Shown here piece after piece: positions 4,409 to 53,620 of a stretch of 64,000 bases of DNA. Source of the stretch: Cyanidioschyzon merolae (Eukaryota). The translations under genes were made by a program, and so were the position numbers. Each line of letters starts with the position of its first letter. The stretch's first letter is position 1. The notes beneath the pieces are model-generated. The model saw only the letters and a program-made list of their open reading frames with translations. It made no database searches and was not told the origin of the DNA. The stretch lies in assembly GCA_000091205.1 (NCBI GenBank), contig AP006499.2. One strand, written 5' to 3'.

Positions 4409-5038
4409 TCAAATTGGGCGTACACTGTACGCCCTGGGTATCGTTCTAGTGTCATCGACACAGGCCTGTGGAGACTTTTTCATTTCTGAGACCGCTTCCT
4501 TCATCGCCCTCTTGTCTACGGCTCGAAATGAGGCGGGCTCTCCGGTCCTTCCTGCTCGGTTGTCGGCAATGGAAAGATGTTGAAGGCAGCGTTTCAAGTC
4601 CAGATTTCGCAGATTCGGACTGCTGCCAACGCAGTTCATGCAGAGGCGGAAGTTGCGCTCTACGCTTCGCTTGCCATTTTCACCTGATTGGTAGGGAGCC
4701 ATGGTATGCGCTTCGCAACGGTGACAGTAAAATGTACTCTTGTGTTCTGGTATGCCCATTATACGTTCTGCGTCGAGGAGCCTCCTGTGGTGCGTGAAGA
4801 CTTGCTCCATAGCTCGGTACATGACAGGTACCGAGGACTCGCATCGATGCCAGCTTCCGTTTCCGTACCGAGTCCTAGACGCTTTGATGACGGTAATCGT
4901 CTGGATGATCTCTTCGACAAGCTCTCCGTCTGCTGCACACGCAAGCGGATGCTGTACAATTGGATAGAGGATTTGTTCAACGCGACATTGCCCATTAGAG
5001 AACAAGTACCCGGAAGAAAATCCAGGCTGGAGAAACAT
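4409..5038 (-). pseudogene. possible TnpB-like relic (family C) lacking RuvC-III signature
   Basis: ORF contains LVEEI (RuvC-II-like), W(x11)YRA, and HKSTFYCHRCEAH(x23)CMNC zinc ribbon in TnpB order and spacing. Where D-NAA-NI is expected it reads RNLDLKRCLQHL. Lies in an AT-richer island immediately downstream of family A copy A1. Confidence 0.3.
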
Positions 5039-5344
5039 TCGAGAAAATTTGAACCGTGTACACTCACCTCATGCAAAGCGGTGATGCGCTCTGCACAGGA
5101 AGCGATCGCTGTGATGCCTGCATTCCTAGTCCAAGGCCCTTTTCCATGGAAAAGGAGGCAATGGGTGCTTCTGAAAGCATTTCCCGTTGGATATTTCATG
5201 CTGCTGTTGCGCTCAGCTTCGTCGATAGCGATAAATAGAAAAAGGAGGGATTGGTCTTTCGGATAGAATCGACGTTGATTGGACGTGACAAGTTTCGTCA
5301 ACTTCCGGCATGAGCTTGTGAGCAAGCCGATAAAGAACGACGTG

Positions 5345-6815
5345 GCATAATAATCTATGTAAATGCATTGTTCATGAAACAAAGAAAATGTCTCACGACC
5401 ATGAAGGTATATATACATACTGACGAGCAGACGCCTCCGAATCTTCTTTGATCGGCGGCTTGCCTTAGGTATCAGTTTCTCCCCATACACTTCGAGACTG
5501 AGAAGCTGCCCTACAAAGTTTGCTCGCGTCAGCTCATCGGGTCTTGTCTCCAGAACCGCACATCGTATGATATTGATGGCGGCGTTGAAGTCTTTGTTCG
5601 CGAACTCCATGCGTTTGTTGCCGCTGTTTGAACTCATCAATGCAAGGGTTGCTAGAACCCGCGTCCTGTGTGCCACCTGCTGCTCTTTCAGCAATCCGTG
5701 CTTTTCCATCGCCGAAGCCCTCCGCTGTGTTCTCCCTATCTCGACCATCTGGTGTGTATAACCCAGCTCATGCCTTAGATTTTTCATTTCTCAAAATGAA
5801 TGGGCTTCTTTATGCCCGTAGCTAAGGACCTTCCCCGAGGAAGAAGGACATGTTCAAGAAAAACGACATATGCCTCGGCGTGCCATCGTGTGCTGAAAGC
5901 TTCGGCAATTCGCCCCGTGGAGCGATCATTGCGTTTCAGGACAGAATACACTCCTTCAATGGGGCTGAATCACGGAGCGTATGGAGGAATGGAAGGCAGC
6001 TCTACTCCCAGATAGTATCGGCAAAATCTGGAACTCAAGGGGAATGGTAAAATACTACGTTGTTCAATAGAAGGACGTTGCCGGACTTGAGGAAAAAATG
6101 TTCAACAATTCGACAAAGTGTTCGCTGCTATTGAATGAGCCTTCTCAACGAGCGAATATGAGGACGCCAAATGAATCCACTCCAGCTAGAACAGATGATG
6201 ATGTCCTCGTTCTCCTCGAGCTCGATCTTGTATACAATGAGCTCTATCTCCGAGAAAATAAACATATACGATTGGACCGTTTCGTCTGAAGCAGTTCTCA
6301 TCGGCTGAAAAACAAACCGACGTGCCTGTGCTTCACACGAATCGAGAGGTCCCATGCATGTTGTCGCTGCGATCTCGGTGGAAGATAGCCGTTTTCGTGA
6401 ACCAGGACTGGTTTTGTATGAATGTATCCCGAGTTTCCAGGATCACACGAGCAAGCTGGTGAGAAACAGAGACACCCGCAATAACTACTATTATCGCGTC
6501 GCTTTCCTTAAAGCAATCAAGTGGTCGTTTTTCTAACATGGCCGACAACAAAGTTTTTACCAGTACCTGTTTTTGGAGCAGAGCGCGCATACCTGTTTCT
6601 TTCAGTGTTCTCGACCATCCTAGTATAGTAGTATGACTGACCTGAAGAAGGAATGCAGCCCTCGTTACCATGATCAGTAAATAATATGTATCGTGCATGC
6701 ATTTCGTCTACGATCGAATCGATACAAAGCATAGAAATGTCGATCTCGTACGATACACTGCGAAGAGGCATTTGATGACACGCAGCAGGCGCGAAACAAA
6801 ACTGACGTGAAAGAC
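5345..6815 (-). mobile_element. TnpB/Fanzor-like RuvC nuclease relic, family A copy A1 (frameshifted pseudogene plus about 240-bp 3' tail)
   Basis: Minus-strand translation gives KRMEFANKDFNAAINIIRCAVL (RuvC-III D codon at 5590-5592). Upstream are decayed Zn-finger, VPDFADTIW (6008-6034) and AGVDSFG (6166-6186) blocks in different frames. About 75-80% DNA identity to copy A2 over more than 1.2 kb, including the non-coding tail 5345-5590. Confidence 0.6.
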
Positions 6816-6853
6816 TATAACAATATGCATATAATTGCTACAATCTGCCTTTT

Positions 6854-8806
6854 TTGAGACAATCGCTCCTGAACGTCCCTGTGCGCTTACCAGCGAGCGT
6901 CAGCAGGCGCGCGCCTTGTACCCAGATCCGCCGTGGGGCGCCTGTCGGAGGTCGCCGCTACGCGACCGTATCTGCGAGCCACCACGCTGACCTGCACACT
7001 GCTGCATGCGTAGACGGTATGAACAGTGGAAACGAGTACGCCAGAGTGAGTCCTGGCGCTACGAGTGCCCCAGACGCACAAAGTGGACTTGGCGTGACGA
7101 CTGCTGGTAGCGAGGTAACCATAAAGGCGTGGAAGCAGACGGCAGGCGAGCGCTGCGCCGTGGGAAACGCGCTCGTGGCTGCCCACGAGCCGCACTGCCC
7201 GGTCTGCCCCGAGCCGACGAACAAAATTGTGCCTCGTCGGAAGATGGTACCCAGCTCGATGGCTGTGCAGCCGCAGCCTTTTCCGCACCAAGTCGGGGGT
7301 CACGGTGCGCTGGCACTCCACGGCGCTGGGCTGGTCAAAAAACCCCTGGTAGAGCGAGAGCTGGCCTTTTACGAGTACGTTTGGGGTGATCTAGTCGACA
7401 TATTTGAGAGACTGGATGACACGAGTGAAGACGGGCTGAATTTGCGCAGGAAGCTGGTGGCCCCACACAGCCCACGAAAACTCGAACGACTGCTATCGTC
7501 AGAGACGCGGGGGCGTGCGCTCGCAAACTTGCGCGACAGGCTTCAGTACCGCCGAATGAAAGCGGAGCGTCGCTGCGCTTTATGTCGACAAAACGCACCG
7601 GTTGGTTGTGGCTCGAGCGCTGGCACCAACAAGCTCTGTACGATGCAGTTCTCTGACCTGGTGGTTCAGACGCTGCGCGAGTTCACCGCCCGCTACTATG
7701 GTATCGTTTCCCTCTACCGAGTACGCGGCGAATGGAGGTACACCCGCGAGCTCCCATCATCTAGTGCTATCGAACTCGAAGCCAATGACTCGAGTGACTC
7801 GGCGATAACAGGCCTGCCTGATGCCGCGGAGCGACGTTCTCCAGCCTCCTCCGAAGACACCAGTTCGGGACTCGTAGAGCTGTGGCATGCGGAAAACGGC
7901 AAGGCCCTGGACGTGAACCCGTGGGCGCGAGTCTGCTTCGAGCGCTCGTTTGCGTCCTATGCCTCGCACCGTGGGACACGGAGTCCTCGCGTCGGCACGA
8001 CCCCCGGGGCTGACGCGAACCACATGGACCCTGACCGAGGCGTCGTAGTGGAAACCGGCGTCACGAGCTCGGACCCAGACGATGCCGTGCAACATGATTT
8101 TTTAGTGCTCGAGGATCTGACGTTTCCTTTTCGTTACCCGTCAGTTCTGGACGTTAAGGTTGGTACGCGGGACTATGACGACGAGGCAACCGAGGAGAAA
8201 CGCCGTCGGCACATCGAAAAATGCCGGATGACGACGAGCGCTCGCTATGGCGTGCGGTTAACCGGTATGCAAGTATTCCAGCCAGAGCGACGCACCTACC
8301 TTTGCCATGATAAGTACCATGGCCGTCGCTTAAAGGATGAAGAGCAGCTGCAGGAGGAGCTGCAGCAGTACCTCGACAACGGCCAACGGAGTCGCGTTGC
8401 TGCCCTGCGCGCCGTTCAGGTTGCGAACGCCTTTCGACAACGCCTGGAAATACTGCGTGATTTCGTCGCCAGACAGGAAGAATGGCGGTTCTACAGCTCG
8501 AGCCTTTTATTTATCTACGAAGGAGACAGCGTTGAGGCACAAGACGCTCCTGTGCAGCCTGCAAGCGACGCGAACGCTGCGACTGCCTCCGAAGTGGCGT
8601 CCGCGTGCGCTGCCCGGAACGGCAGCAAAAGCGGAAACGCTACCTCCGTTTGCCTGAAAATGATTGACTTTGCCCATACCCAGCGGAGCAACTGCGATGA
8701 TGGCCCAAACGATGACGGCTATTTGCTCGGTATCGAAACCATGATTCGTTTATTTTTCAACGCGGCGCAACGATTCGCCGAGCGCGGAAACCAGTGGCAT
8801 CCGTAA
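6854..8806 (+). CDS. inositol polyphosphate kinase (IPK/IP6K family)
   Basis: QVGGHG; PSVLDVKVGTR (P-x-x-x-D-x-K-x-G signature); SSLLFIYEGD; MIDFAHT. Start uncertain: 6854 is a non-ATG track start, first ATG near 7019. Confidence 0.8.
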   Translation: MRQSLLNVPVRLPASVSRRAPCTQIRRGAPVGGRRYATVSASHHADLHTAACVDGMNSGNEYARVSPGATSAPDAQSGLGVTTAGSEVTIKAWKQTAGERCAVGNALVAAHEPHCPVCPEPTNKIVPRRKMVPSSMAVQPQPFPHQVGGHGALALHGAGLVKKPLVERELAFYEYVWGDLVDIFERLDDTSEDGLNLRRKLVAPHSPRKLERLLSSETRGRALANLRDRLQYRRMKAERRCALCRQNAPVGCGSSAGTNKLCTMQFSDLVVQTLREFTARYYGIVSLYRVRGEWRYTRELPSSSAIELEANDSSDSAITGLPDAAERRSPASSEDTSSGLVELWHAENGKALDVNPWARVCFERSFASYASHRGTRSPRVGTTPGADANHMDPDRGVVVETGVTSSDPDDAVQHDFLVLEDLTFPFRYPSVLDVKVGTRDYDDEATEEKRRRHIEKCRMTTSARYGVRLTGMQVFQPERRTYLCHDKYHGRRLKDEEQLQEELQQYLDNGQRSRVAALRAVQVANAFRQRLEILRDFVARQEEWRFYSSSLLFIYEGDSVEAQDAPVQPASDANAATASEVASACAARNGSKSGNATSVCLKMIDFAHTQRSNCDDGPNDDGYLLGIETMIRLFFNAAQRFAERGNQWHP

Positions 8807-10399: not shown

Positions 10400-11800
10400 G
10401 TGCAGCAGTGAGGGTCTATCGATATATGTAGGTGGATTTGGGATTTTTGGGTCATCTTTTGGGGTGGTTCGCTTGACGCTTTGCGGTTGGAATGAAGTTA
10501 GGTTACCGTAAACGAGCTGATTCGCAGTGCCATGGAACAGGGTTCGAAAACGATCTGGTATTATGATGCAGTACACAAGGTGCACAGCGCCACGCTTCGC
10601 GTTGTTTTCCCGTGAATCATGCATTACACGAGCATTCTTCGAGATTTTTACGGCTGTGTTTCATGGAAACCCGTAGGCACAGTGATTCGGGCCGATGGAT
10701 TTACAAGAAAAACGTTCGGCCTCGTTTCTTGACGACTTGTTCACAAGCTCTTGTCGAATGTTCACTGAAATACGAAGGTAAAATAATCGACTCCGTTCGA
10801 GAGAAAAATCCAAGGCTCTATGTGGCCATGGATGAAGCGGCGTTCGATAGCAGCATGATGCCTCTTAGGGGCTATGCTGCCGGAGGCCCTGGTGTCTTCA
10901 GTTTTCATGGAACGGGGTCTTGGACCTCGACTTGAGTCATCGAAGCGATCGTTACCAGGGGAGCGCGCGTCACCGCTTCGCAAAAAAGGAGCATGAACGG
11001 ATCGAAATTACTCGATTTTTCCTCCAAACTGGATTTCTGTTTTCGCACTTGTTCCATCGCAGAAAACATTGCGCTCCATAAACCCTCAGTAGAATGGAAC
11101 AACGTGCGCCGGATTGTGCGATCGATAGAGAACTTGTCGGGGAATCGTCCAGAAAAAGCCCGTGATCGCTGGTACAGCGTCGAGGGCGTTATCGAAGGAG
11201 GGTATCGACCATCATCCGCTGTGCTCGTCAAGGGCATGTACCGAGTGATAAAGCGTGCCTTTATGCGCCATAGGCCGGTGCCCAGAGAAGTACATACGGT
11301 GGACATGTCGGAACGCATTCAAGTTTCGCGGCTGCGACAGATTCTATACAAAGAAGATAAAAACGAGAATCGAATCGTAGATTGCAACTTTTGCATCTGC
11401 ATGAAATGCGTAAACAACATACGGAAGCCGATTAGGTATGCCGGTAGCACTCGTATGAATATCCTTCGACTGCTGACAAAAGAGCAGGAGCAACGAGAGA
11501 ATCCGGCGGATTGAAAGCCCGGCATAAGAGAGAGGGGATGAAAACAGTCGTAGAAAAAGCCGGCAAACGCTGGTTCGATGACAATGTGAAGAGACCAATA
11601 CCCTTGCGCGTACACCCGAGTTAGCAAAGTGGACCGGTTCCATTCCATTCTGGAATGGGTGTATCTCAGTGCTCGCGTGTTGATGGCACTGGGAAGCGAC
11701 CCAACGTTCAATGTGTACGTCCGAGCTGGAACACCTCTTCCACGCTAGTCTGGCAAGAGAGTATCTCAGATTTCGCGTATTGCCAGAGTCGGAGCGGGCG
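10400..11800 (+). mobile_element. TnpB-like RuvC nuclease relic, family B copy B1
   Basis: ORF 10993..11514 reads ...RIVRSIENLSGN (RuvC-II-like E), W(x11)YR, C-NFC-ICMKC zinc cluster, then STRMNILRLLTKE in place of D-NAA-NILR. Upstream ORF has YVAMDEAAFDS (RuvC-I-like). The 3' tail 11514-11780 is about 75% identical to the B2 tail. AT-richer than flanks. 5' boundary approximate. Confidence 0.5.
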
Positions 11801-22361: not shown

Positions 22362-24030
22362 GCCGAAGTGTAGACTCCTTTTCGGACTCTGCTCGAGGCA
22401 CAATACTCCTAAACGAGGAGGTCACAGATAATCCGCGTGCGAACATTCCCGGCCTCGGCGGCTGCGTCCGATCGGCGAAGAGGAAATCCCTTAAATAGGC
22501 GAAGGTAAATTCCATATTACATGGCGCGTCCAACTTTAGCCCATTTTCCGCCGTAGAAAGACGCAGGATCGAGCCAGGCTCATTCGAATACGCAAATGCA
22601 GCCGGGAACCACAGAAGAGGCCTCGAATGCTCTCCAGATGCTTCAAAGCTCCATGAGCCGAAGCGCAGACTTCCCGTTGGTCGTCCTGGTTCGATCAGTC
22701 TTACGATGCTTGTCCTCTGGGAGACGCACCAACCGTCAATGGTTGTTTCGGCGCTTGAAGCCGCAATGCCATACTCGTCGTGTGGAAACAGAGCGCTTTT
22801 CGTCTTCCTGACGGAAGCCTGCCTGAGACTTGCACCCATCTGTGAAGTCAACGAAGCGACTTCGAGCCGCACCAGTTGAAGTTGCCCGCAGGAGGAAGCG
22901 GAGGATACCACACGCCCAAACGTTTAGCGTTCAGAGGTCCGTAACGAGGCATGAACTCTGGATACACCTTGAGCATATCGCAGCTGCCGGGCACAGTTGC
23001 TGGTGCTGGTTCGGACAAAACGAGCGATGACGCTGGACGCGTGGCTCGCCGTTTACGAGGATCAAAACTGAACATGTGTTGGCGAGGGGCGTTAACCATG
23101 TGCGAACCCGCGTACCCTGATCTTCCGAGACTCGCGATGCCCCAGCTTAGCCAGGCGCACTCCGTCGCCCATGTTCCCGAAATAGTGTCGCATGCGGGCG
23201 TCTCTTTGGTCTCTGAGATCGGAGGAGTCTAATTGCGTGCGAGGATAATCGACAGGGATGTGGCTTCAGATCAAGTGCCAACGAGCGGCAAGCTCCAGTT
23301 AAGAGACGAATCTTCATGAGCGCCGAGCCGACTGCCACGGACATGTAGCACCGCTTTGCAAACAGAGGGATAATCGGGAATGATGCTCTTGTGCACAGAA
23401 TTCTCTATCGTGCAACGATACCGCTAATGGTGTTGCGAATACGACCATGGTCAGTCGCTTCTGCTCTGGAGACCGAAGCTCAGGCCCGCGCTTCGTGCGG
23501 CAAACCCTCGTCTGCCGAACGATACACTGTCCTGAGCTCATTGGAAGTATCGGTGGCGTCGCAGCAGAGCTGGGTAGAATCTCGTGCATGTCGGGCGGGG
23601 AGCGGGCCTCATCAAACGGATCCAGGAAACACCAACAATGGACATGATTGTCCCTATACTCAATCTAGATGGACGCGGATGCATGCGATGACGCGTGATT
23701 CGCAGACATAAACTGGAATGTCATAAGACATAAATATACAAAACTACCAAGAGTCCGAGAGCGCGCTTCTGCGCCCCGTAGCGCTAGACGCAACGTGCGG
23801 CACATATTCGAACGCGGTTGCGCTTTCGGACACGTATCCACCAGGTGTGCCCGAGAGATCCTGCGTACTTCTTTTGTCGCAAACAGAGCGAAGAAGCGTC
23901 TACTGTCACCGAAGGCACGCAGTTGGCGGAACCTGGTGTGCAAGCGTCAGCGTGCTGTCACTCTTGGACCAGAGAAGCAGTGCTGTTGACGAGCGCTGGT
24001 GTTTCGGGGTCACCTGCTCCGGGAGCCGCC

Positions 24031-27000
24031 ATGTCGGCGGCTGTGCACTACAAGTTCCGCTCTGCGAAACACTTTGGTCGGGTGCAGTTTGAGGGGGACT
24101 TTATTCAGCTCGCAGAGCTAAAAGTAGCCATTGTGGAGCAAGAAAAACTGCAGTTTGGCGAGGACTTTGACTTACAAGTAGTTGACGCACAAACCCAGGA
24201 AGAGTACTACGACGAAGAAACCTTGATACCGAAGAACACTTCGGTTATCGTGAAACGAGTGCCTGCTGGCCAGAAGCAGGGCATATTGAGTCAGATCGCA
24301 CTCGCAAGGAAAAATGAGCGCTTCGCTGAGATTCTCGACCGCTCAACCGGCGGCACGGGTGCCACAGCGGGCGCTATTGCTGCAGCTGCACGGCAGGTGC
24401 TTGCTGGCAACCTGGGACCCAGCACAACCGCGAACACAGGCATGACGGGCAGTGAACCTGTCCGGCTCCGTCGAGGTGACGAAGACACGCGCCTTGCCTC
24501 CGTGGCCCTCGCAGCTGGCGCAGGAGACTCGGGCCCGAATCCACGAAACATCCAGCGTCCAGGCGGCCGCGTAACGGCCTCGGGAGCGATGGATGGGCCA
24601 CCGCCGGGTGCGCAGCCACCGCCAGGTTATATCTGTCACCGCTGCGGAGAGCCAGGCCATTATATCCAACACTGCACGGCAAACCTGGAAGGCGATGTGA
24701 ATATCATTCGTGTGAAGCGACCAACTGGCATTCCGCGGAGCATGCTAAAAACGATTGATGCACCTGTAGATGGAGGGACCGAGCTTCAGCTTCCAGGTGG
24801 TAAATTCGTGACCCTAGCCACAGACGATCGTGAGTTCAGCAAAGAACCCCTGGCGGTGCGAATGGCGCGCCTTGCGGAAGCACGAGCGGGGGCACGCGAG
24901 GACAATACCATCGCTTCCGACGTTACGACGATACAAGGATCCGAGACGAAGCAACCAGTGCCCATGGATAAAAAGGAATCGGAAACAACTCGTCGCCAAG
25001 TTGCTGCTTCCGATGCGCCATCGGAGAGCGCGGCGTCATCGCCGCGAGGCTCCACGCCAACAGACTCGGTGGAAAACGCTCAGCTGTTACCAGCAGATAT
25101 ACGCCCCGATTTACCCTACTTCCCGTTACCAGGAATGGATCAGAAGGAACATTTCTTTGGGACAGGCGAACTGCCCACCGCGCGTGAGTTCCAGGAAGTA
25201 ATCTGGGGTATTATTTTGATGAATAGGGATCAGCATCCAGAACTTGGGCATGACATGGAGACGGGAACTCAACGCGATGTGACGCGGGATTCGGCGGCAG
25301 CGCTCCAGCCTGAGCCCAGATCCATGGAAAGCGCTGAAGCGCCGAGCACGACAAATGAGCGTGCTGTATCAGCACAGCCGCGGCCGCGGATGACTGCTTC
25401 TGCAGAAGGAGAAAGCTACCAGGAGCGCCGGCCGCAGGCGCACGAACGAAAGACACCCACGCATGTGCAGGATGTATCCAAGCGTTCTCCAACATCTGAA
25501 GCACAAAACGTACCCGAACGAGGCGACAGAGATCCCGACAAATCAGCGCCTCGAAGTGGAAGCGTCGCCAATGCGCGTCCGATACCCTCCAGCTTCAAAT
25601 CCACAGAGACCGCGAATCATCATCTAGACGCAGAAAGGCCAAGACCAGGGCGTCGATCGTCGGCGCTCCAGGTGACGTCGATGGAACCCTCAGGTGCACC
25701 ATTTGGCGAAATCGAGTACTCGCGTGTGTCGACCAAGAATCAGCGCTTGCTACCGCCGGATCGGAAGGCTACTGAAAGCGCTCAAGCAACAGCCCCGAAC
25801 TACGGAAATTCATTGCCGAGGAAACAAGCTGCCTTTGCCCGCAGTGGAAAGATGACTGGGAATACCACGAGACCGGGGCTGCCTCTTGCGCCGCTCCAAA
25901 CGCAGCAGCAGCAGCAGCACCAGCAGCAGCAGCAGCACCAGCAGCGACAGACGCATGTGCAACGCTTTCAGGCTGCAAACCAACACGGCAACGAGGCAGC
26001 GAGCGTGGATAAACAGCACCCCTTGGACAGAGGTCAGCATGCCATGCAGAGAACGGAGCCTGCGCGAGAACGTCGACAACCTACTGTTGCAGCCGCCGAC
26101 AGGAATGCGGTATCGCGAGGCGTTCCGACTTCGAGGGCGACCTCTTCTGGTGTCACAGCAACGGGCTCTACCGCGCCCGTTCGTACCAAAATGCCGCCAC
26201 GAATGCCGCATCAGAGACCAGATGAGGATACGCTGGGTCACAGGCATCATGCAGCGTCGGACACGGAGCAAAAACCTGCCCAGTTGAACGCAAACCTCTC
26301 TCAGCCGCAACCGCTGAGCGTGTCGCGTGCTCGAGAGCGATCAGGTCTGGGAAAAAGCGCTCGGCACTCGCCGGCACCCGTGGCACCTGCTCTGCATGGA
26401 ACAACCCGAAAGCACCCGCGGGCTAGCGACTCGTCACCAGGAACCGAGACGCGCGACTCAAGACCGATTCCAGTTTTTGCTCGTCTGGGCACGAGAGCAG
26501 AAGCTGCAGCGTCTACGCGCGCCCCAGCCTCTGTGCCCCAGCGGAGCACTACCGGGAGCATCGGGTCCGCGGAACGGAGGACGGTGCCGCCAGCGCATCC
26601 GCCTCCTGCAGACGCGTCGCAGCTCAAAGGCAAAAACTCCTCCCCGATGAATCAACAAGGCGAATATCTACACCGAGCGAGTGTACGCGCACCACCAAAG
26701 GTTCCGGAAAAGCGTCCGGCAGCGACAGCAGCTGTTGGCGACGACAAGCGCTCCCGGAACACGCCGAGCTCAGCCGAGCGGGCCGCCGCTAACGTCTTTG
26801 AACGATTAGGACCAGCGATACCGGTGCCTCCTCGTCTTGCTGGGCGTATTTCGAGCGGAAAAGTCAGCGACGGTGAACGCGGAGCGAACGCCTCTACCGG
26901 TGCATCTGGTGTGGTCGCCAACGACGCCTCGAAAACGAAAACGAACCTACGGGCAGTGCACGCGAAGCAGAGCGTCCCTATGACACAGCAAAAAACACCC

Positions 27001-27072
27001 GTGCCGACATATTCCTCGAGTGAAACAGGTTCAAGTCGTGCCCGGAACAGGGCTGCAAACTTGCCGTGGTAA
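24031..27072 (+). CDS. RBBP6/Mpe1-like protein: DWNN ubiquitin-like domain plus CCHC zinc knuckle, no RING detected, long disordered tail with polyQ
   Basis: MSAAVHYKFRSAKHFGRVQFEGDFIQLAELKVAIVEQEKL...LIPKNTSVIVKRVP (DWNN). YICHRCGEPGHYIQHC (CCHC). RVKRPTGIPRSMLKTIDAP matches the RBBP6 linker. ATG at 24031; track ORF starts 23818. (CAG)n at 25903-25946 encodes QQQQQHQQQQQHQQ. Confidence 0.8.
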   Translation: MSAAVHYKFRSAKHFGRVQFEGDFIQLAELKVAIVEQEKLQFGEDFDLQVVDAQTQEEYYDEETLIPKNTSVIVKRVPAGQKQGILSQIALARKNERFAEILDRSTGGTGATAGAIAAAARQVLAGNLGPSTTANTGMTGSEPVRLRRGDEDTRLASVALAAGAGDSGPNPRNIQRPGGRVTASGAMDGPPPGAQPPPGYICHRCGEPGHYIQHCTANLEGDVNIIRVKRPTGIPRSMLKTIDAPVDGGTELQLPGGKFVTLATDDREFSKEPLAVRMARLAEARAGAREDNTIASDVTTIQGSETKQPVPMDKKESETTRRQVAASDAPSESAASSPRGSTPTDSVENAQLLPADIRPDLPYFPLPGMDQKEHFFGTGELPTAREFQEVIWGIILMNRDQHPELGHDMETGTQRDVTRDSAAALQPEPRSMESAEAPSTTNERAVSAQPRPRMTASAEGESYQERRPQAHERKTPTHVQDVSKRSPTSEAQNVPERGDRDPDKSAPRSGSVANARPIPSSFKSTETANHHLDAERPRPGRRSSALQVTSMEPSGAPFGEIEYSRVSTKNQRLLPPDRKATESAQATAPNYGNSLPRKQAAFARSGKMTGNTTRPGLPLAPLQTQQQQQHQQQQQHQQRQTHVQRFQAANQHGNEAASVDKQHPLDRGQHAMQRTEPARERRQPTVAAADRNAVSRGVPTSRATSSGVTATGSTAPVRTKMPPRMPHQRPDEDTLGHRHHAASDTEQKPAQLNANLSQPQPLSVSRARERSGLGKSARHSPAPVAPALHGTTRKHPRASDSSPGTETRDSRPIPVFARLGTRAEAAASTRAPASVPQRSTTGSIGSAERRTVPPAHPPPADASQLKGKNSSPMNQQGEYLHRASVRAPPKVPEKRPAATAAVGDDKRSRNTPSSAERAAANVFERLGPAIPVPPRLAGRISSGKVSDGERGANASTGASGVVANDASKTKTNLRAVHAKQSVPMTQQKTPVPTYSSSETGSSRARNRAANLPW

Positions 27073-27077
27073 ACACA

Positions 27078-28310
27078 GCAACTGAATATGTTGGCGATGG
27101 TGTACCAGGAAGCGAAAACGTATCGCGAACATGGGGTAAATGAATATCCACCCGGAGACATGTGCCTGCCTTTTTCGACCGGGCTCCTGCTGTCGGCTTT
27201 CGTTTTCTCCTTGCACACTTCGAACATCAGAGGCGGTGCGACGAAGTTAGGTTTCGTCAGCTCTGCGTGTCTCGTCTTGAGCGCTGCACATCTCCTGATA
27301 TTGATAGCAGCGTTGAAGTCTCGGTTCGCAGACTCCATGCGTGCAGTGCCTCTGGAGCTACTCACTCATGCAAGGAATGGTACAACTCGCGCCCTGTGTG
27401 CCACTACAGTCTCGTGATCGTCTCGTCGATGAAACACCTTTGCTCTCCGATTTCCCCTCATCTTCATCGTCAGTTGCTCTTCTTCGCTCGACGGTCGCAC
27501 AGAAGAGGATGTTTTCCGGTTTTATCGGATAGCCAGCGATGTCGGTCCTTCAGAATCCCCGAATTCCATGCTCATACCTTTCCCTTCTATTTTTATTTCT
27601 TCAAAAAAACACAGTTGTTTATGCCCTCAGATGAGGACCCTCCCGGAAGGAGACGGTCTTGCAGAAGAACGACGAAATGTGCCCTGGTATCACCGTGTGG
27701 TGAACGCTTCAGCGCTTGGCGCAGTGGCGCAATCACTAGGTTTCGTCATAGAAACGCCTGCTCTTCATAGGACTGAACCACCGAATGTACGGAGGAATAA
27801 AAAGCCGCTCTACCCTGACAGAATCAGCGATAGATCGAACGCAAGTGGAATGGAGAAATACCACAATATCCAACGGAAAGACGTCGTCAGACCTCAGGGA
27901 AAAGTCTTCAATTGTTCGATAAAATGGTTCGTGCTGTTGTATGAGCCTTCTCTACGAGCGAAACTGAGGTCGCCGAATGGTTCCACTCCCGCACGAACAG
28001 GTGGTGTCCTTGTTATCTACGAATTCGTTCGTTGAGAATATCAGTTTTTGGCGCTGATCGCATACGCTTCTTTCTTTCAGTATTCCTCAACTACCTGAGT
28101 TCGTATGGTATGGCTGACGTAAATGATGCATGCAGTCCTCCTTGCACTATTCAGTAAAAATATATCTCTGATAGACGATTCAATTACGATCCACACAGTA
28201 CATTGCATCGTGAGTCCGATCTCCTGCTCTGCACTGCGAAAAAAGCATTCGTTGACACGCAGGAACGTCGGAACGGAATTGACTTGAACAAATTCGCAGC
28301 TGAACATCAG
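27078..28310 (-). mobile_element. TnpB/Fanzor-like relic, family A copy A2
   Basis: ARMESANRDFNAAINIRRCAAL (RuvC-III motif near 27320). Collinear DNA homology to A1 from the 3' tail (27080-27320) through VRSIADSVR and AGVEPFG blocks to about 28310, with a roughly 325-bp indel relative to A1. No intact ORF. The 3' end lies within about 10 bp of the RBBP6-like stop codon (27070-27072). Confidence 0.55.
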
Positions 28311-32919: not shown

Positions 32920-33439
32920 TTCCGGTGCAGGTTCCCAGACCTAACCGCCGACGCCCAGTGCTGCGTTTTCCCCCGCTAGTCAAAACCTAAGGTTTGCAGG
33001 CGTGTCTGCGAGTTTTTTGTCGAACTTCACCCCGCACCCGCGAGACTTGAACACAGAACAGGACGAGTGACTCTGGCGGTGGCGAGTAGTGCCTCGTGCT
33101 GCACTCGTGCTCACGCGCTCCGGGTTTCCAGGCAGGCGCGTATCCAGGCCCTACGGCGGTTAATGCTGGAAGCGCACGCTCCACGGGCGTTGTGCGCTCA
33201 CGCTTTGTCGGGTGAACGAGCAGCGCAGTACTCGTCCCTGGTTCGCAACGCTATGTGTCTACCGCTGTCACCTACACGGTTTTTAGTGATGTAGAACTGA
33301 CAGGTAGAAACCGAGGCCCTTGGATACGCGATTGCTGTGTATCGGGAGAACAACAGCTCCACATTGATTGCGCTGCACACCGAACAGCGCCGCCGATTTT
33401 TTTCATTGACAAAACGTGTACTTGTGCCAGCGTTCTCCG

Positions 33440-36400
33440 ATTATGCGGGTTCTCCTTTCTTTTTTGTGTGTTTTCTTTCAGTGCGCGGCGACGTATCCAC
33501 CAACCCCCTACCTCCAAGTTACATACCCTTTACTGATTCCAGGATATTCTGGTCGTTTCATACGTCCCATCGCGTGTGCCTCGTACCTGCCGTTCCGTAT
33601 TCGCCTTTGCGCTTGAACGCTGGAGCAGATAGTTCATGGAGCTGGAACAGCTTTTCTACACCACAGAGGGCGTCGGCTCGAGGCGTGCTTCACCCGACGT
33701 AGAATCGGATCTCGTCGTCAGTTTGTGCTCGGACAGTCTGCGGATGCAGGCTTGTCTTCGCTGCACGACACGCTGGAGAAACTTGGTTGTTAGGATATAT
33801 CGTGGAAGCCGCCTCTCTCCTTTGTGATCATGCATGGAATGCGTTGTTGTCGGTTGGCAATGCGGGTTTGTGCTTGACACCCACCACAGTGGGTAGGCGC
33901 AAAGAGCGCACTGAGCCCATGTGCGCATCCGATTCGCTGGACCTTCCGCCTAGAAGGTAGCATGTGAGTTTGTTCGCCACTAATGAGCGCTGAGGCTCGG
34001 TTAGCGGACCATCAGTTGCCAGTGCTACACTCAGGGTGAGTGTCCGGCCTTTTGCTATCACGGTGATGTCCAGCTGCTGCTGTCCTTCAAGGAGCTCGCT
34101 GCGCTCCTGCTTCGAGCGCGGGCACTGTAAGCCCAAATATGTCAGCGTCTCGGGGGTCTGGTCTCCAGAGCAGGGACAGTGTGACTCCCAGTGCGACTCC
34201 AGTGTTCCTATACGGCTTAGAGCCGGTGCTGGTAGCCAGATGCCACCAACGCGGATTTTGGCGAGCCACTGGGTACCTCGAGCAAGTCCCGGGAATTCCA
34301 GCGCCTCCCACCAGTACTTGCACGTGTTTGCTAGGTTGTAGTTCCGGTATACAGTCAAGCCGGCGTTAAGGGCGCGATTTGTTCCGTGTCTACGTTCCCA
34401 TATTGTTTGGACCGTTCGCTTGAGGCGGCGGGAGCCTTGTACATTTCTGGGGAACGATTGGAGCGCATTTTCGCCTAAGAGGCGCTTCAGCCAAATCTGC
34501 GCTGATTTCATCCAAGTGTTCTAGCGGTGCGTTGGGGTCTGCATGAAAATCCGACTCAAAGAGGTGCGCATAGTGGGCCCTTTGGCCCGTATACATGCCC
34601 GGCAGCCTGCTGCTATCGCTTCTGTCGAGGCTATTTGGAGTTCAAGTCCGAGTGCCAGCGCGGTGGTTGCTCTGCTCTGCACTGAGCATCCAACAACAAC
34701 GAGTCGCATTGCCCTGTTGGCGGCTGTCTGCGGACGCGAGGCATTTGTGTGCTTCATGCCGCACCACCCAGCACCCCAGGTCGTAGGCTGGATGATACAC
34801 ATCCTTAGTGCCCTCGTACGGATTGCTAAGGGGATAGAGGGGTCGGATAGGACTGGGCGTGCGATCGCTGTACGTCTACGCATCTTGGCGATCATCTCGT
34901 TAACGTGTGCCTTTTCGTCGAGCGTCAGCATGCGACAGACCCTGCAGATAGCGATATTTTTCCCCGATCGGACTTTCCTGATTCTGCAACCGCCACGAGC
35001 GATTGCGAATGCTCTGCGAGTCTCCATGGATGACCATGACGCCGCACTTCGATGCTCCTACGTTCATCTTCCAGCGATCGACCCAGGCGCTGACTTGTTC
35101 CATGCTACCCGCAAGCGTTTCCGGGGCGGGTGCCAACAACACGACATCGTCCGCGAATAGAAGGCCTGCGAGGCGGTTCCTATGCGAGGGCTCTTTACCG
35201 GGCTCTCCGCAGTCTATCCACGGCACCTCAAGTCCGTATTGTCTGCAGTTGTTCAGCGGATCGTTGATGAAGATGTTGAAAAGGAGCGGGGATGCGGGGT
35301 CGCCCTTTTGTAGTCCACGGCGGATTCTTATACAAGGGGTTCTTGAGCTGTCGCCCAGTCGGATGCGCATCCATGAGTCTGCATAGAGCGCACGGAAGAA
35401 CGCTAAGCACTTTCCGGAGACTACGGCACGTTCCATCTTCAAAAATAGAACCTCGTGCGGGACCGTGTCAAAGACCTTTTGGAAGTCGGTGAAGCATACG
35501 TAAGTTGGTTGTCGGTCACGAATAAAGCGACGTTGCGCCACTTCAATGAGGGTCAGGGCATGGCTCATGTACTCCTCGCGGCTCCGGAATCCAGCCTGCC
35601 CTGGGGCGAAGAACTTGCGTTGCTCGAGGCCCCTCTGAGTCCGGTTCGTGGGAATGGCGCAAAGTAGCTTTATGATTGACGGGATGAGGCGCATAGTCCG
35701 GTAGTTGTTCATGTCTGTGTGGGAGTCTTTTTTGAGGATCGGTACGACTTCGGCAGTCCTCCATACATCCGGGATGTACGTTTCTTCGAACATGCCTTGG
35801 ATGAGCTCCACAAGGCGTTTGCCTAAGCTTGTGTCAGGTTCATCTGGTATCGATGGTGTCCCTGTTGTCCCGTCTTTTGGGGTCGTCAGTTTCATCCACT
35901 CCGCAGGGATACCGTCGATGCTAGGTGTTTTGCGGTTGCATGACCTTAAGAGGGTCCGAACAGATTCAGGCCAGAAGATTGGCTCGTTCCATTCCGGTAC
36001 CGGGTCGAGGCGCGGTAGTTCTGCGGCATACTGGTGCCAATAGATTCGGTTTTGGCAGTGCCCAGTTGCGTCTTCATGTAATTCTGTGCCGTGGTCCGTC
36101 CAGGCCTCATTCACTGAGGCACCCTCCGTCCTCAGCGCTTCCTTATAAACGATTGGTGTGAGCCCCAGACACTTTTTTGGTGGGTCAAGTCTCGATCGGA
36201 TATAGCGCTAGGTCTCATCTTCGTTGGTGCTCTCGAGCATAGATTTCGCCAGGGAGGCGATTTTGCGGTTTCGATCCTCCTGTTTGTCTTCTCTGGAAAG
36301 TTTCTTCTTTCTTTTGATAGCTTCCTCATGTTGCGCCTGTAGCGCCGGTAGCGCTGCCTTCGCTTCCTTGTCTCCGGCGTTGGCGCGTATGGCGGTGCGT

Positions 36401-49151: not shown

Positions 49152-49940
49152 CTAAAACTCCGGGGGTGCGGGTGCATCCTCGAGGCGGTTGTGGCGCTGA
49201 AACCGTCGGTGCCCTCGGCGGGGCGTCAGATGAGGTGGCCAAATCGTGCCCGGTCCAAGCTCATCTTGTACTTCTTCTCGCCCCGCACTAGTTTCCAGCT
49301 GGCGGAGCTGACGACTAGATACCTCATTATCGGTTCTGGCTACAGCCAATTCGGTTTTTAGGTGAGCAATCTGCCGCAACAGGTTCTCTTCGCGGACAGA
49401 TGCCTCTTCTCGGACTCGTTGGAGCTCCTCCTGCAGAACTCGGAGTGATTCTCGCTGGTTGCGCACCAGTTCCTGCATGAAGCCTTGCAACTCAGAGCGT
49501 AACACTTCCTGCTGGGTGCGTGCGTCGTCAGCAGGGGTCGTAGCCGCTGGCGCTGCTGAGTCCAGCAAACGCGACTGCAGCGCAGCGAGTTGCTCTTCAA
49601 TGCGTGTGCTGCGCCTGCGCTCCGTCTCCAGTTGCTCCTCTAGCGCCTTTTTTGTCATCTGAAGACGGTGGACCTCGTCATCAGATTCGCGTAAGTAACT
49701 TGTAGCCAAAGCATAAGTTTCACGAATTAGCGCCTGTTCACTGTCTTCCCAGAACTGTTGTAGCTTCGCGGTGGCGTCGTGCACCACTTGCTTCCATTGC
49801 TCCAGGTTCTCTGGTTTGGCCTGTTCCACAGCTTGACGGACCAAGTCTGCGTCCAGCCTCTCGGCACTTGATATTCTCTCCTCTTCGAAAGCGTTTGCAA
49901 GACTAGTGAGCTCAGCTCTGAGCGAAGCGGCTCGGCTCAT
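49152..49940 (-). CDS. coiled-coil protein (hypothetical)
   Basis: 262 aa, heptad-rich Glu/Leu/Arg/Gln composition throughout. Clean ATG. Confidence 0.45.
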   Translation of the reverse strand: MSRAASLRAELTSLANAFEEERISSAERLDADLVRQAVEQAKPENLEQWKQVVHDATAKLQQFWEDSEQALIRETYALATSYLRESDDEVHRLQMTKKALEEQLETERRRSTRIEEQLAALQSRLLDSAAPAATTPADDARTQQEVLRSELQGFMQELVRNQRESLRVLQEELQRVREEASVREENLLRQIAHLKTELAVARTDNEVSSRQLRQLETSAGREEVQDELGPGTIWPPHLTPRRGHRRFQRHNRLEDAPAPPEF

Positions 49941-50103
49941 GGTGGCGGCTGAGCACGCACCAGCACCGCCGCTCTAAGTCGAACGACGCCAACGGTGCAC
50001 AGTAGTGGCGATAAACCCTCCCTAGACAAAACGTCTCCAACTGACGTGTAGACGCCTCCCCGTGTTTTTTGACCGGCCACCCACTACTGTTTCCAATTTC
50101 TTC

Positions 50104-51310
50104 TCATATAGTTAACCTTTTGGGAGGTTGTCTCACAAAATTCTCTCTTGTCATCTCTGGAAGTCTTTTTTCCATCACCACACATTTCCTGATATTAATT
50201 GCGGCGTTAAAGTCTCGGTTCACAAACTCCATCCGTTTCTTGCCATCATTGATTGTACTTACTAATGCAAGTCGCCCATGAACGTTCGCCCTCCTTTCCA
50301 TTTGCTATCCCGTCAGCGGTCCGTATTTTTCATATCCTCAGGGCTCCGCTGGCACTTTTCCATCTCGAATCTCTGAAGTGTGCATCCCAGCTCATGGTGT
50401 ATATACAATGCTCGGAACTCATCGATCGGTAGCGGAACGAAACGCCTTGCGCACTCCTTGTACGTTCTCGCCGGTGGAGCTGGTGTAGTCCCTTTTTGGG
50501 TCTTCCAGCGTCCTGCTCCGTATGCCACTACGAGCCTCTGACGTTCATCCTCCTTCAAGCCACTCAACTGATTGAAAAAGTTGGCAAACGCCCGCTGCTT
50601 CCCACAATACAGATTCATTCGCAGACGAGCCCACCGAGGCTTTGTATACCCTTTCCACAGCGCATCCCAATGAGCAACGCGACCTTCCATGAATTTTCGA
50701 AAAGCTTCAAAGTCCGCTCCTCGACTCGTCACCTTGCTCAAAGCCTCCAGGTGCTCTTTCACTTATGCGTTCCACGTCTCGATTTTATTCCTTGCATTCA
50801 TGATTCTGGAGTCTCGATAGTATCTTGCTCTCGAGAACTTTAAAATACTCATGCCTTTCTGAAGTAAGTTGCCGTGGATACCATCTTCCGCACGCTTGGG
50901 TACTGCGATGGTTATGATACTTGTGCCCCAGGGTCCGCGCCAACGACAAAGTCGTTATCCTGCACTTTCTGCGTCGCAGAATCCGCCTCCTTCTCATCTT
51001 CATGCTTCGTTACGGGCGAGGCCGAGCATGGAACAAGACGATCCGCCTTCAAGCGCCGACGGTGTACACACATGGATACCCCATCGGTTTCGATCACCCC
51101 AGTGAATACCTTTTGTTCGCTGACTTTCAAACGTTTGATTTCGAAGATATTCTTCTGGTACTTCTCCCGGTTTACACCGGTGAACTCCTTCCTGCTAACC
51201 TTGAACTCCGGACAGATCTCCCTCATGATGCCATGAAGGACTGCGGAATCGATGGTCACGAAATGTGCCCTGATGTTGCACAACGGAACCACGTTGAAGC
51301 GCTTCTCCAT
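50104..51310 (-). mobile_element. TnpB/Fanzor-like relic, family A copy A3 (diverged subfamily)
   Basis: Three consecutive minus ORFs in different frames: ...[12 protein letters not shown] (RuvC-I-like, near 50920-50950); RLVVAYGAGRWKTQKGTTPAPPARTYKECARRFVPLPIDEFRALYIHHELGC (50313-50762); KKRMEFVNRDFNAAINIRKCVV...NFVRQPPKRLTI* (50104-50301). 12-bp frame break at 50301/50313. May extend 5' to about 51900. The 3' end is about 160 bp from the coiled-coil gene ATG. Confidence 0.6.
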
Positions 51311-52299
51311 TAGGAACGCTTCCGTCTCTCAGACGCTTCATTGTTCCCGCGATTCAGCTCCATCTCCGCCTTGGGTTCGAGCTCTCGGTCTAGGTGCACG
51401 AAATAGCGCATAATTAGGGGATATCATCATTTTTTCACCTTTTTTCATATCTGATACCTTTTCTGCTGGGTTGACCGGCCTCAAGGGTGCACGGTGCTCA
51501 TGAATAGTCGCACGGATTATAGAATCCTCATTCGTGCACCTGCGTGATGTCTTCTTGTCGACGAACTCGATCTCCTGTTCAAGCTGGCGATCGTCCGTCA
51601 TCCCATTGGTGATGGCCCATCTTTCCTTCGCGAGAGAGACCCGGTTGGAGTGCAAACACGGCGCATATCATGAAGCCCTGGAGGTTCATGGTTAAACGGT
51701 CTCCAAGTTCGTTAGGTACCGCATGGCCCCGTGGGTGTAAATATTCCAGTCCCTCTGCATCGAGTACCGTAGAAGCTGTAGAAGGGATGCTTTTCGTGGA
51801 GGGCATGCACCCGCTCATTTCCCCTCGAGGTTTCCCCTGTGGCGAGCACCAGGTGGCGGAGAAGGGTCCTGCTGAAAAATTCTTCCGGAACCTCGGCTGT
51901 TTCGATGTCGGCCACGTCTTCATTCATCTCCTTCACCAAATGCATTAGCCCTGACGAAGCCTTTATAACACTCATGGAGTAAGACGCAACACGGTTTCTG
52001 GGAGTCTCTTGCAACGCTTCCTTGGACGGATGCTTGATATGTATAAGATGGCAGGCTTTGACAACCATCACGTCGTTGTGCCGTCTTTCTTGCAGCCTTT
52101 GACGTCGGGCCTCCTTCATTCGCTTCTTTGTCTCGTCCTGTTCCTCTTCGCACTGGACTGTGTGTTCGTTTGTATCCGCCAGCTGGCGACACTGGGCCTC
52201 CAGGAGCCTCCACTTTCACTCGCATAACTTTCCTTTTTAGTTTTTTTTCTGAGAAAGAACGCACTTTGAATGCTTCAGGTATAAACAGCGAAAAATCAC

Positions 52300-53620
52300 T
52301 TGAATACACTTACTTGAGGGTTGGAATACGATTGAACTGAAAAGCATACTTTGCTACGACTTCAATGCAAATACACCGCGTGCAGCAGAACAACACGCTC
52401 TTGATACCGATCGCGTTTCCGTTCAAGAGCAGCATGCGCGAAGTGTCTCGTGTAACTGGCTGATGTCTCTGGTGCACGTGTCCAGCCCCCTACAGAAAAA
52501 AAAACAGAGACTCACGACTAACTGGCAACGATATGACAATTTCTTTCCCCCCTCTAAGGTAAACGTTAAAAGGCGAAAAGGTTTCCATATTGTCGAAAGT
52601 TTATTTTATAGGCGAAACGTCCCGCGAGCCGGACGTGTCTGCCAGACCAGTGCTTCATGCGACCCCAGTGGAAGGTGCTTGCTGGAAACCCGAGCAACTC
52701 GTGCGAAATGCAGTTTATTATGGGACTAGGAGCGGGTATGCTGCGTCAGGGCGTCGGCCTGGTCGCAGTTATCTCCTTACATATCGCTTGGCGCTGCCGC
52801 AGGCACTAGGTCTGTCTGCAGAGCTTGCAGGCTCCCAGAAAGATTATGTACTCTGGCGCTGTATCGGGAAAAGCGCTCCTCGATTGGACGCCCTCTGTGG
52901 TACGGTAACGCGGTTTTGTCTCCGCGATCCATCTGTTCCAGCGGTTTAGGCGCCACTACGGGTGCTCATGGTAGGTACTCGCGCTCGCTAGAACGTAAAA
53001 ACCGACCAGTATGTCCGCGATGAAGCATAGGTAATGTAACTTGGGAGTAGGGAGTTTGATGGATACTTCAATGCGCACTGAAAAAAATAGGAAAAGAAAA
53101 AGCGCATAATCGGCGAACGCTGGCCAATGTCAACGTTTTGTCAATTAAAAAAATCTGCGAATACCTGACCACAACGAAATGGCACCGATGCGACGGGCGC
53201 GCTCAGTTTCCACCCCGAAAAGACGGGAATGACAAGCGCTGCACAAACCGCAACGACCGCTTGTGCGTGATACGTATGAGCAAGAGCCTGGAGCAGTGAG
53301 ATAGGGACCTGGACGCTGCCATCAACATTCTTCGACTGCTGCGAATGAAGCTGGAGTCAAAACGAGAGACCAACGAATTAAAAACCGGAGGTATGAGGGA
53401 GCGAAAGGAGGCTATTGCAGAAAAGGTCCACAAATCCAAAGTATCAATGACTACAGGAAGAGACCAAAACTCTAGCGTGCGCACCCGAGTGAGTAACGCG
53501 GAACCTTCCATGGTAGTCTGCCGTGGGTACCGGGGAGCCCCGTGTCCATCGCGAGACACTCTCGCAGAGCGTCCGCCTTGTTTTCGGAGGAAGCAGGCGG
53601 AAAAGCGGCAACGCCATGCA
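52300..53620 (+). mobile_element. TnpB-like relic, family B copy B2
   Basis: + strand 53300-53341 translates DRDLDAAINILRLL (near-canonical TnpB RuvC-III) preceded by HRCDG...KRCTNRNDRLC (decayed Zn finger) in the same frame after a stop. Upstream GFHIVESLFYRRN (RuvC-II-like E, about 52595) and W...VEG...AVYY in a second frame. Tail 53350-53600 is about 75% identical to the B1 tail. Carries about 0.4 kb extra internal sequence relative to B1. Confidence 0.5.

Follow-up and report, generated by a model that had tools for sequence, protein, structure and literature searches.

The window analyzed here is a stretch of 64,000 nucleotides (nt) of Cyanidioschyzon merolae DNA (contig AP006499.2), which contains two copies, A1 and A2, of a shared repeat unit. 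In a preliminary description, the tail of A1 (5345-5590, ~240 bp) was taken to be non-coding and was proposed as a candidate omegaRNA scaffold, i.e. the guide RNA part that is encoded at the 3' end of TnpB/Fanzor nuclease genes. The window is eukaryotic in character (GC ~56%), with long open reading frames (ORFs) for an inositol polyphosphate kinase (IPK, 6854-8806) and a DWNN/zinc-knuckle protein (23818-27072). Only three places in it match proteins of the nuclease family in tblastn: 5467-5772, 27149-27413 and 49972-52264. The A1-A2 likeness sits on the minus strand of a gene, and by their homology A1 (5373-5772) and A2 (27099-27413) are identified as minus-strand, 5'-truncated remnants of a Fanzor1 nuclease gene. 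The third place holds a more complete relic, referred to as copy 3.

Layout of the A1 and A2 units

In A1, the Fanzor homology begins sharply at 5772, and the gene lacks its N-terminal three quarters. Homologs align by tblastn from 5772 to 5467 with 56-57% amino acid identity (E 6e-30); the corresponding match in A2 runs from 27413 to 27195 (51-53%, E 3e-17). A1 keeps the last ~100 codons and A2 the last ~75, so that A1 aligns with residues ~302-402 of a 425-aa reference and A2 with a shorter stretch. Both retain RuvC-III as their sole RuvC motif (NKDFNAAINI in A1, within 5533-5590; NRDFNAAINI in A2) and are therefore fragments, not genes. The minus-strand readings are ...KRMEFANKDFNAAINIIRCAVLETRPDELTRANFVGQLLSLEVYGEKL... 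for A1, ...RMESANRDFNAAINIRRCAALKTRHAELTKPNFVAPPLMFEV... for A2 and ...KRMEFVNRDFNAAINIRKCVVMEKRLPEMTRENFVRQ... for the third copy (~50238). An intact Fanzor1 ORF is not found in the window: A1 and A2 are 5'-truncated, and copy 3 carries frameshifts and stops.

The interval in question can be subdivided into three parts, all on the minus strand. Positions 5533-5590 hold the RuvC-III codons, which belong to the last constrained Fanzor1 codons of A1 (5533-5772, ...HELGYTHQ...KRMEFANKDFNAAINIIRCAVLETRPDE, from tblastn). These are followed by relaxed C-terminal tail codons at 5412-5532 (LTRANFVGQLLSLEVYGEKLIPKASRRSKKIRRRLLVS), homologous to the family tail TRENFVGQPLKVELYEKKLEAVVGGRSKKTGRRLHVS, and by a subfamily-specific terminal module at 5373-5411, which is delimited by nhmmer, an alignment of eight copies of this subfamily (B) and an alifold prediction. 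The tail contains the 5' arm of a predicted helix, P1 (GGAGGCGTCTGC, plus-strand positions 5427-5438). The P1 3' arm lies in the terminal module (GTGAGACATTTTC, 5384-5396) and is followed by the element end ...GTTTCATGAAC, and a small hairpin GTATG/TATAC (5407-5420) extends slightly past the module. The non-coding tail first described thus held up from ~5532 downward, where codon-periodic constraint is absent, and not for 5533-5590, about a quarter of it, which is conserved coding sequence. Its last 28 nt (5345-5372) lie outside the repeat altogether.

A2 is organized likewise on the minus strand. Its last constrained codons (27261-27413, RMESANRDFNAAINIRRCAALKTRHAE, from tblastn) have an in-frame stop upstream, and its relaxed tail codons and B-type terminal module occupy 27099-27260 (nhmmer boundary 27099, alignment of the B copies). 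The P1 5' arm is at 27154-27166, a hairpin GGTGGAT/ATTTACC at 27135-27152 and the P1 3' arm at 27112-27127. The convergent DWNN/zinc-knuckle gene has its stop codon 27 nt from the element end.

Upstream of the Fanzor part, both copies share a segment of ~1 kb, 'U', that is unrelated to Fanzor (A1 5773-6818 and A2 27414-28288, minus strand). In blastn, 27583-28030 pairs with 5773-6227 (70%) and 28044-28288 with 6569-6811 (67%). About 340 nt inside the A1 copy of U (6228-6568) are absent from A2; they were either inserted into A1 or deleted from A2. It was considered whether U is decayed Fanzor coding sequence; this was rejected, as 268 family proteins give no tblastn match upstream of 5772. U is also present in two metagenome loci (L012 and L075), and the junction between U and the Fanzor part is common to A1, A2 and L012, each with different flanks. 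Since each site has different flanking genes, the unit is a dispersed ORF-less derivative and not a local segmental duplication.

Identity of the nuclease family

Copy 3 (49962-52225, minus strand) is a nearly full-length Fanzor1 pseudogene of the main family, recognized by its motifs, its homolog matches and a covariance model (R1). All three motifs of a split RuvC domain, with the catalytic Asp (GxDPG), Glu (DEFRTS) and Asp (RDxNAAxNI), are found in copy 3 and its homologs; in copy 3 they read VVGADPG (RuvC-I), IDEFRA (RuvC-II) and NRDFNAAINI (RuvC-III). The gene is broken by two frameshifts and in-frame stops, and its 3' end carries the terminal hairpins of the main family (49962-50042, 75.8 bits with R1).

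After repair, the translation has 190 homologs with 60-77% identity, all of them unnamed metagenome proteins, and a profile search yields 1544 sequence clusters in the wider family. Searches of Pfam, NCBIfam, PHROGs and PDB with single family proteins matched nothing, and the narrow family profile alone was not significant against solved Fanzor1 proteins (E 2.9). A profile of 38 diverse full-length members matches the Fanzor1 structures PpFz1 from Parasitella (9CF0, E 1.3e-17), SpuFz1 from Spizellomyces (8GKH, 7e-13) and GtFz1 from Guillardia (9CER, 1.5e-5). The family is therefore Fanzor1, which bears out the TnpB/Fanzor-like gene suspected at the outset. Its context is eukaryotic, with IPK and DWNN/zf-CCHC neighbors in the window and compact eukaryotic genes (eIF5B-like, uL30, ORC5, alpha/beta hydrolase) on the family contigs of loci L081-L093. 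The N-terminus, as translated from the family consensus DNA, is basic and predicted to resemble a nuclear localization signal (MKKQ..ARKKQK..KKKRKGE).

Between RuvC-II and RuvC-III the family reads VDEFRTSYTHHELGC...EKC...RGLLALVST (copy 3 ~50330-50440). At the positions of the cysteines of the aligned PpFz1, paired CxxC zinc-ribbon motifs are missing from the family alignments, and this segment may represent an altered or reduced TNB domain.

The surroundings of copy 3 show two further features. The next minus-strand ORF (49152-49940), which is matched only in a Logan assembly of run SRR6049666, has its ATG (49940) ~20 nt downstream of the copy 3 3' end. Inverted repeats (52568-53159 against 55453-55730 and 33391-33697) in blocks of 65-113 nt with 72-81% identity directly adjoin copy 3 on its upstream side; these may be solo fragments from the 5' part of elements of the same family.

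Element boundaries and subfamily B

One scan of a few JGI metagenomes supplied 80 loci out of at least 500 matches, and 57 3' ends were aligned after dereplication. The family thus has at least 500 copies in these metagenomes. The element consists of a single long ORF of ~730 aa with a basic N-terminus. Conservation in the main family is flat (0.80-0.87) up to the canonical stop (...GRRLHVSWRRFV, then TAG), persists for 55-70 nt past it and then collapses, which marks the 3' end of the element. A1 and A2 depart from the main-family consensus five codons before the canonical stop and continue into a different terminus of about 40-45 nt. This B terminus is common to A1, A2 and six distinct copies (loci L003, L012, L031/L073, L036/L037, which represent two copies, and L063/L067). 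With an nhmmer profile of all eight copies, a common 3' boundary is found at 5373 in A1 and 27099 in A2, where the similarity stops. By position, the interval therefore lies at the sense-strand 3' end of the nuclease ORF and runs up to the element boundary. This agrees with the location that had been claimed for it, namely the nuclease 3' end where omegaRNA scaffolds are encoded.

Other kinds of element end were also considered. A Helitron-type end was rejected, as no CTRR terminus follows the terminal hairpin. The idea that the B terminus is a copy of the main-family 5' end is unsupported (nhmmer, E 1.6). The 5' regions of four metagenome loci (L002, L024, L026, L045) and of the window (~52400-52500) contain segments such as GTCGTGAGTCTCTGTTCTTTGTTCTA and AGACGTTTTGTCAT that resemble the B-type 3' terminus GTCGTGAGACATTTTCTTTGTTTCA and the main hairpin AGACGTTTTGTCT; at this same E value, these are non-significant hints that related motifs might occur at both element ends.

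Coding constraint in the tail

In intact relatives the reading frame often continues for ~42 codons past ...RPPE-x. In 46 relatives, codon-periodic constraint stops at ...RPPE (~5533 in A1), so that from ~5532 downward the tail was fairly described as lying downstream of the last conserved codons. The ratio of third- to first/second-position diversity, 2.0-2.35 within the ORF, falls to 1.21 in the tail and to 1.18 past the stop. Among ORF windows of equal size (n=221) it ranges from 1.58 to 2.82, and none falls below 1.58. In the copies whose upstream ORF is longest and most intact, the ORF ends are scattered from +17 to +104 codons from the RuvC-III anchor, some directly after RPPE. From this pattern of variation it follows that the tail is not selected as protein.

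The codon right after RPPE marks the end of the codon-periodic constraint and is hypervariable (CTG 13, TGG 10, TAG 9, TCG 8, TTG 7, TGA 2 and others), being a stop in about one fifth of the copies. It corresponds to 5530-5532, 27258-27260 and 50152-50154 in the window and to the same column in loci L001-L080. TAG or TGA at this site could have been the ancestral stop, and this was rejected, given a codon spectrum centered on TTG/CTG with all one-step neighbors present.

Divergence of A1 and A2

The similarity of the two tails is real (in blastn, 5476-5676 pairs with 27204-27404 at 72.6%, E 9e-27), and the value of about 75% first given for it is too high. The example strings first quoted are 36/50 = 72% identical; the A1 string contains one wrong letter (the actual letters are 'tacacttcg...'). 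On the minus strand they translate to ELTRANFVGQLLSLEV and ELTKPNFVAPPLMFEV.

The similarity extends upstream of the tail to ~6818 in A1 and 28288 in A2, at 66-69% identity. In global alignment, identity is 66-69% in U, 67-73% in the Fanzor codons (73% over 5506-5676), 62% in the tail codons (5412-5505) and 69% in the terminal 39 nt (5373-5411), and it drops to ~41-57% past the element boundary (beyond 5372). Conservation above the neutral level had been set beforehand as a check on the scaffold proposal, its absence counting as refutation. It is not observed, as the tail at 62-69% does not exceed the rest of the unit at 66-73%. The tail identity equals that of the non-Fanzor part of the unit, and there is therefore no sign of purifying selection: the A1-A2 tail decays like the remaining unit, neutrally. 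The two copies resemble each other because both descend from one truncated progenitor. Shared ancestry alone suffices, and the alternative that had been named alongside the scaffold, one ancestral insertion unit, fully accounts for the similarity.

Predicted structure of the 3' module

The folding of the 3' module was assessed on covariance-model alignments with a column-shuffle null, which replaced the raw alignment. In the terminal 82 nt of the main family, a hairpin GGCGGG/CUCGCC was seen by eye with the compensatory variants AGCGUG/CACGCU (L048) and GGCGCG/CGCGCC (L002). A competing pairing, CGCCA/UGGCG, was rejected by eye, being broken without compensation in several copies. The main terminal hairpin exists in two unrelated sequence versions at the same position, CGUCGUUCGA/UCGAACGGCG and CGUUUUUC/GAAAGGCG, both with G.U pairs. 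The three-hairpin model R1 finds 82 sense-strand instances, copy 3 among them. In an alignment fitted to this model, 80.6% are paired versus 77.5% in shuffles (0/500), with 13 versus 8.3 double-change pairs (9/500) and 35 versus 28.6 further pair types (2/500). This amounts to moderate support for covariation of the main-family terminal hairpins.

In subfamily B (eight copies), RNAalifold predicts the G.U-rich helix P1 (GGAGGCGUCUG... with ...GAAACGUUUUC) around a hairpin of 5-7 bp. The P1 arms GAGGCGUCU/AGACGUUUU are common to both subfamilies; the loop is far shorter in the main family and the loop contents differ. Against column shuffles with the prediction repeated, the alifold z values are -2.9 for the B terminus, -2.5 for the main-family P1 and -2.45 for the main-family tail. 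For the 76 columns of the B terminus, the covariance term is reached in 3/200 column shuffles. Of 53 main-family termini, 50 fold better as the sense strand than as the antisense strand (-12.5 versus -7.1 kcal/mol), and so do all eight B copies; these counts are not independent trials because the copies are related. Overall, the predictions point to modest, strand-specific signals of conserved folding in the 3' module. As for the covariation expected of a functional RNA, the main hairpins show moderate support, B shows an excess in the eight copies from which its structure was itself derived, and the coding-like tail shows none.

Interpretation and alternative explanations

The interval is quite probably the 3' end of a Fanzor1-derived mobile unit, of which A1 would be a decayed copy that has lost its 5' part and A2 the sister copy. 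The progenitor would have been a unit of ~1.2-1.4 kb, in which an unrelated upstream part was joined to the last ~400 nt of a Fanzor1 element. Copies at different loci would then have decayed neutrally to ~65-70% identity. Read along the minus strand, such a unit would present the RuvC-III codons, ~40 relaxed C-terminal codons and a subfamily terminus of ~40 nt that ends at 5373 (27099 in A2). In the window, the 3' module is a relic without a cognate intact nuclease and is non-functional here.

For the ancestral, active elements we lean toward the omegaRNA reading. By analogy with characterized Fanzor1 and TnpB systems, the 3' stretch of intact relatives would most likely encode the scaffold. 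The omegaRNA would be a sense-strand RNA, overlapping the ORF at its end, with the G.U-rich helix and one to three stem-loops, and its guide would be read from the flank just past the element end. If so, an abundant, apparently unannotated Fanzor1 family could add a compact scaffold, and the truncated derivatives would show that guide modules persist after the loss of the nuclease.

Several results weigh against an RNA role. No Rfam 15 family reaches its gathering score in the whole window, and 5200-5800 contains only chance-level hits, so that the match to RNA family models once envisaged failed to appear; this carries little weight because Rfam may not hold Fanzor omegaRNAs. With the raw main-family alignment, RNAalifold predicts no structure, because the hairpin variants are misaligned there. 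In the coding-like tail, the predicted structure covaries no more than shuffles do (87.6% versus 87.2% paired), and model R1 finds no main-family terminal hairpins in A1 or A2. In B, double-change pairs number 8 versus 3.7 in shuffles (0/500), but the structure was derived from the same eight sequences, and B-type tails folded one by one give unremarkable z values (-2.7 to +1.7). The tail is weakly constrained, with a family diversity of 0.21 versus ~0.26 at ORF third positions, and the 51 nt past the canonical stop are at or above this neutral proxy (0.31). Finally, the hairpins could equally be explained as DNA signals for transposition.

This last explanation is, of the alternatives, the one that survives best, and even so it is unlikely as a full account. 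Here the hairpins and terminus would be DNA-level signals for a transposase acting in trans, as at IS200/IS605 or Helitron ends. It fits well that the hairpins lie within ~80 nt of the element boundary and that the element is present in at least 500 copies without itself encoding a transposase. A G.T-tolerant, strand-specific hairpin suits single-strand DNA transposition equally well, and the B-type 3' terminus weakly resembles main-family 5' regions. However, this resemblance is not significant (E 1.6), and no HUH, serine or other transposase was seen adjoining the copies. Nor does it exclude an RNA scaffold, because the same end sequence serves both roles in TnpB/Fanzor systems.

It is rather improbable that the tail is a poorly constrained, probably disordered C-terminal extension followed by a 3' untranslated region, with no RNA function and a likeness due purely to shared ancestry. 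Many copies do hold the frame through ...GRRLHVSWRRFV to the stop, tail diversity follows the coding rank order pos2 < pos1 < pos3 (0.173, 0.220, 0.238) at an overall level near neutral, and the tail is basic (RSKKTGRRLH), as is often the case in nuclear proteins. The codon periodicity of the tail, however, is below that of every ORF window, and the copies that are most intact stop at widely differing places, even directly after RPPE. This reading would also leave unexplained the strand bias in folding and the terminal hairpins, which persist although their sequence has been completely replaced.

A more speculative possibility, to which we give little credence, is that A1/A2-type units are ORF-less Fanzor1 satellites, i.e. 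an omegaRNA module and 3' end fused to unrelated DNA, which would spread or provide extra guides by means of a Fanzor1 nuclease and a transposase in trans. Such satellites would be the eukaryotic counterpart of guide-only derivatives of bacterial IS200/IS605 elements.

That A1 and/or A2 are still functional omegaRNA genes, whose scaffold and flank guide are used in trans by a Fanzor1 encoded elsewhere, is very improbable: the unit does keep exactly the 3' ~400 nt expected for a scaffold, with a sharp 3' boundary in eight copies, modest folding support over its terminal 76 columns (z -2.9, covariance term 3/200) and a better-folding sense strand in all eight, but the A1-A2 tail identity is the same as in the non-Fanzor part, several P1 pairs are seen by eye to be broken in A2 in the B alignment, the whole-tail fold of A2 has a z of +0.22, the window offers only the pseudogene copy 3 and no intact Fanzor1 ORF, and the B terminus is unlike that of the main family, whose protein may therefore not recognize it.

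Neighboring features and annotation

A 342-aa ORF at 4759-5787 (minus strand) spans the Fanzor remnant, the element end and a neighboring repeat. It has no Pfam match and is long for chance at this composition (rough estimate ~0.05 per window). Neither this ORF nor the tail should be annotated as a gene or as a proven RNA. The value for annotation is that the three loci of the window can be labeled as minus-strand Fanzor1 relics.

The neighboring repeat belongs to a second family (4519-5329) that adjoins the A1 3' end and recurs at 10902-11411 (inverted) and 59354-59437. It is present in more than 15 metagenome loci, mostly a few kb from Fanzor copies, and its ORFs have no Pfam match. Inside the DWNN/zinc-knuckle gene, a CAG/CAC run at 25890-25945 encodes a polyglutamine/histidine stretch.

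Comparison with known systems

The closest known counterpart is the Fanzor1 omegaRNA of SpuFz1, PpFz1 and GtFz1 (reportedly described by Saito et al. in 2023; see also Xu et al. 2024). It is the proteins of these same three systems that the family profile matches, and here too the candidate RNA is located at and beyond the ORF 3' end, up to the element boundary. Solved Fanzor1 omegaRNAs combine an SL1 of 7 bp with one to three additional stem-loops and carry the guide at the 3' end (Xu et al. 2024, PMC11423790), and the smallest scaffold consists of SL1 and a 4-bp SL2 (PMC11423790). The small stem-loops of 5-10 bp predicted here are alike, with a variable flank right after the last one. Position and hairpin set thus appear compatible with the solved omegaRNAs. 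In contrast, the copies in the window are truncated or frameshifted relics, and the predicted stems have no SL1/SL2 assignment. Judging from the alignments, the CxxC cysteines of the zinc ribbon, between RuvC-II and RuvC-III, also appear to be missing in the family.

In the TnpB systems of IS200/IS605 elements (e.g. ISDra2), the 3' end of the nuclease ORF forms part of the scaffold of the omegaRNA (reRNA), which extends to the right end of the transposon. The guide comes from the flanking sequence, and stand-alone nuclease elements without a transposase are common. The present family is similar in the position of the candidate scaffold at the ORF and element end, in the putative flank guide and in the absence of a transposase. 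It differs in its eukaryotic host (IPK and DWNN genes are neighbors in the window, and contigs of relatives carry eIF5B, ORC5 and uL30), in its protein of ~730 aa with a basic N-terminus and in that it matches no Rfam or Pfam TnpB model.

Non-autonomous IS200/IS605 derivatives (PATE/MITE-like) keep the element ends. Similarly, the A1/A2 unit has no nuclease ORF, retains the 3' ~400 nt with a sharp 3' boundary and is present at several unrelated loci, both in the window and among its metagenome relatives. Unlike these derivatives, it carries ~1 kb of upstream DNA that bears no relation to the 5' part of the autonomous element, and it has no defined terminal repeats or target duplications. From the distribution of its copies, we infer that the A1/A2-type unit was mobile.

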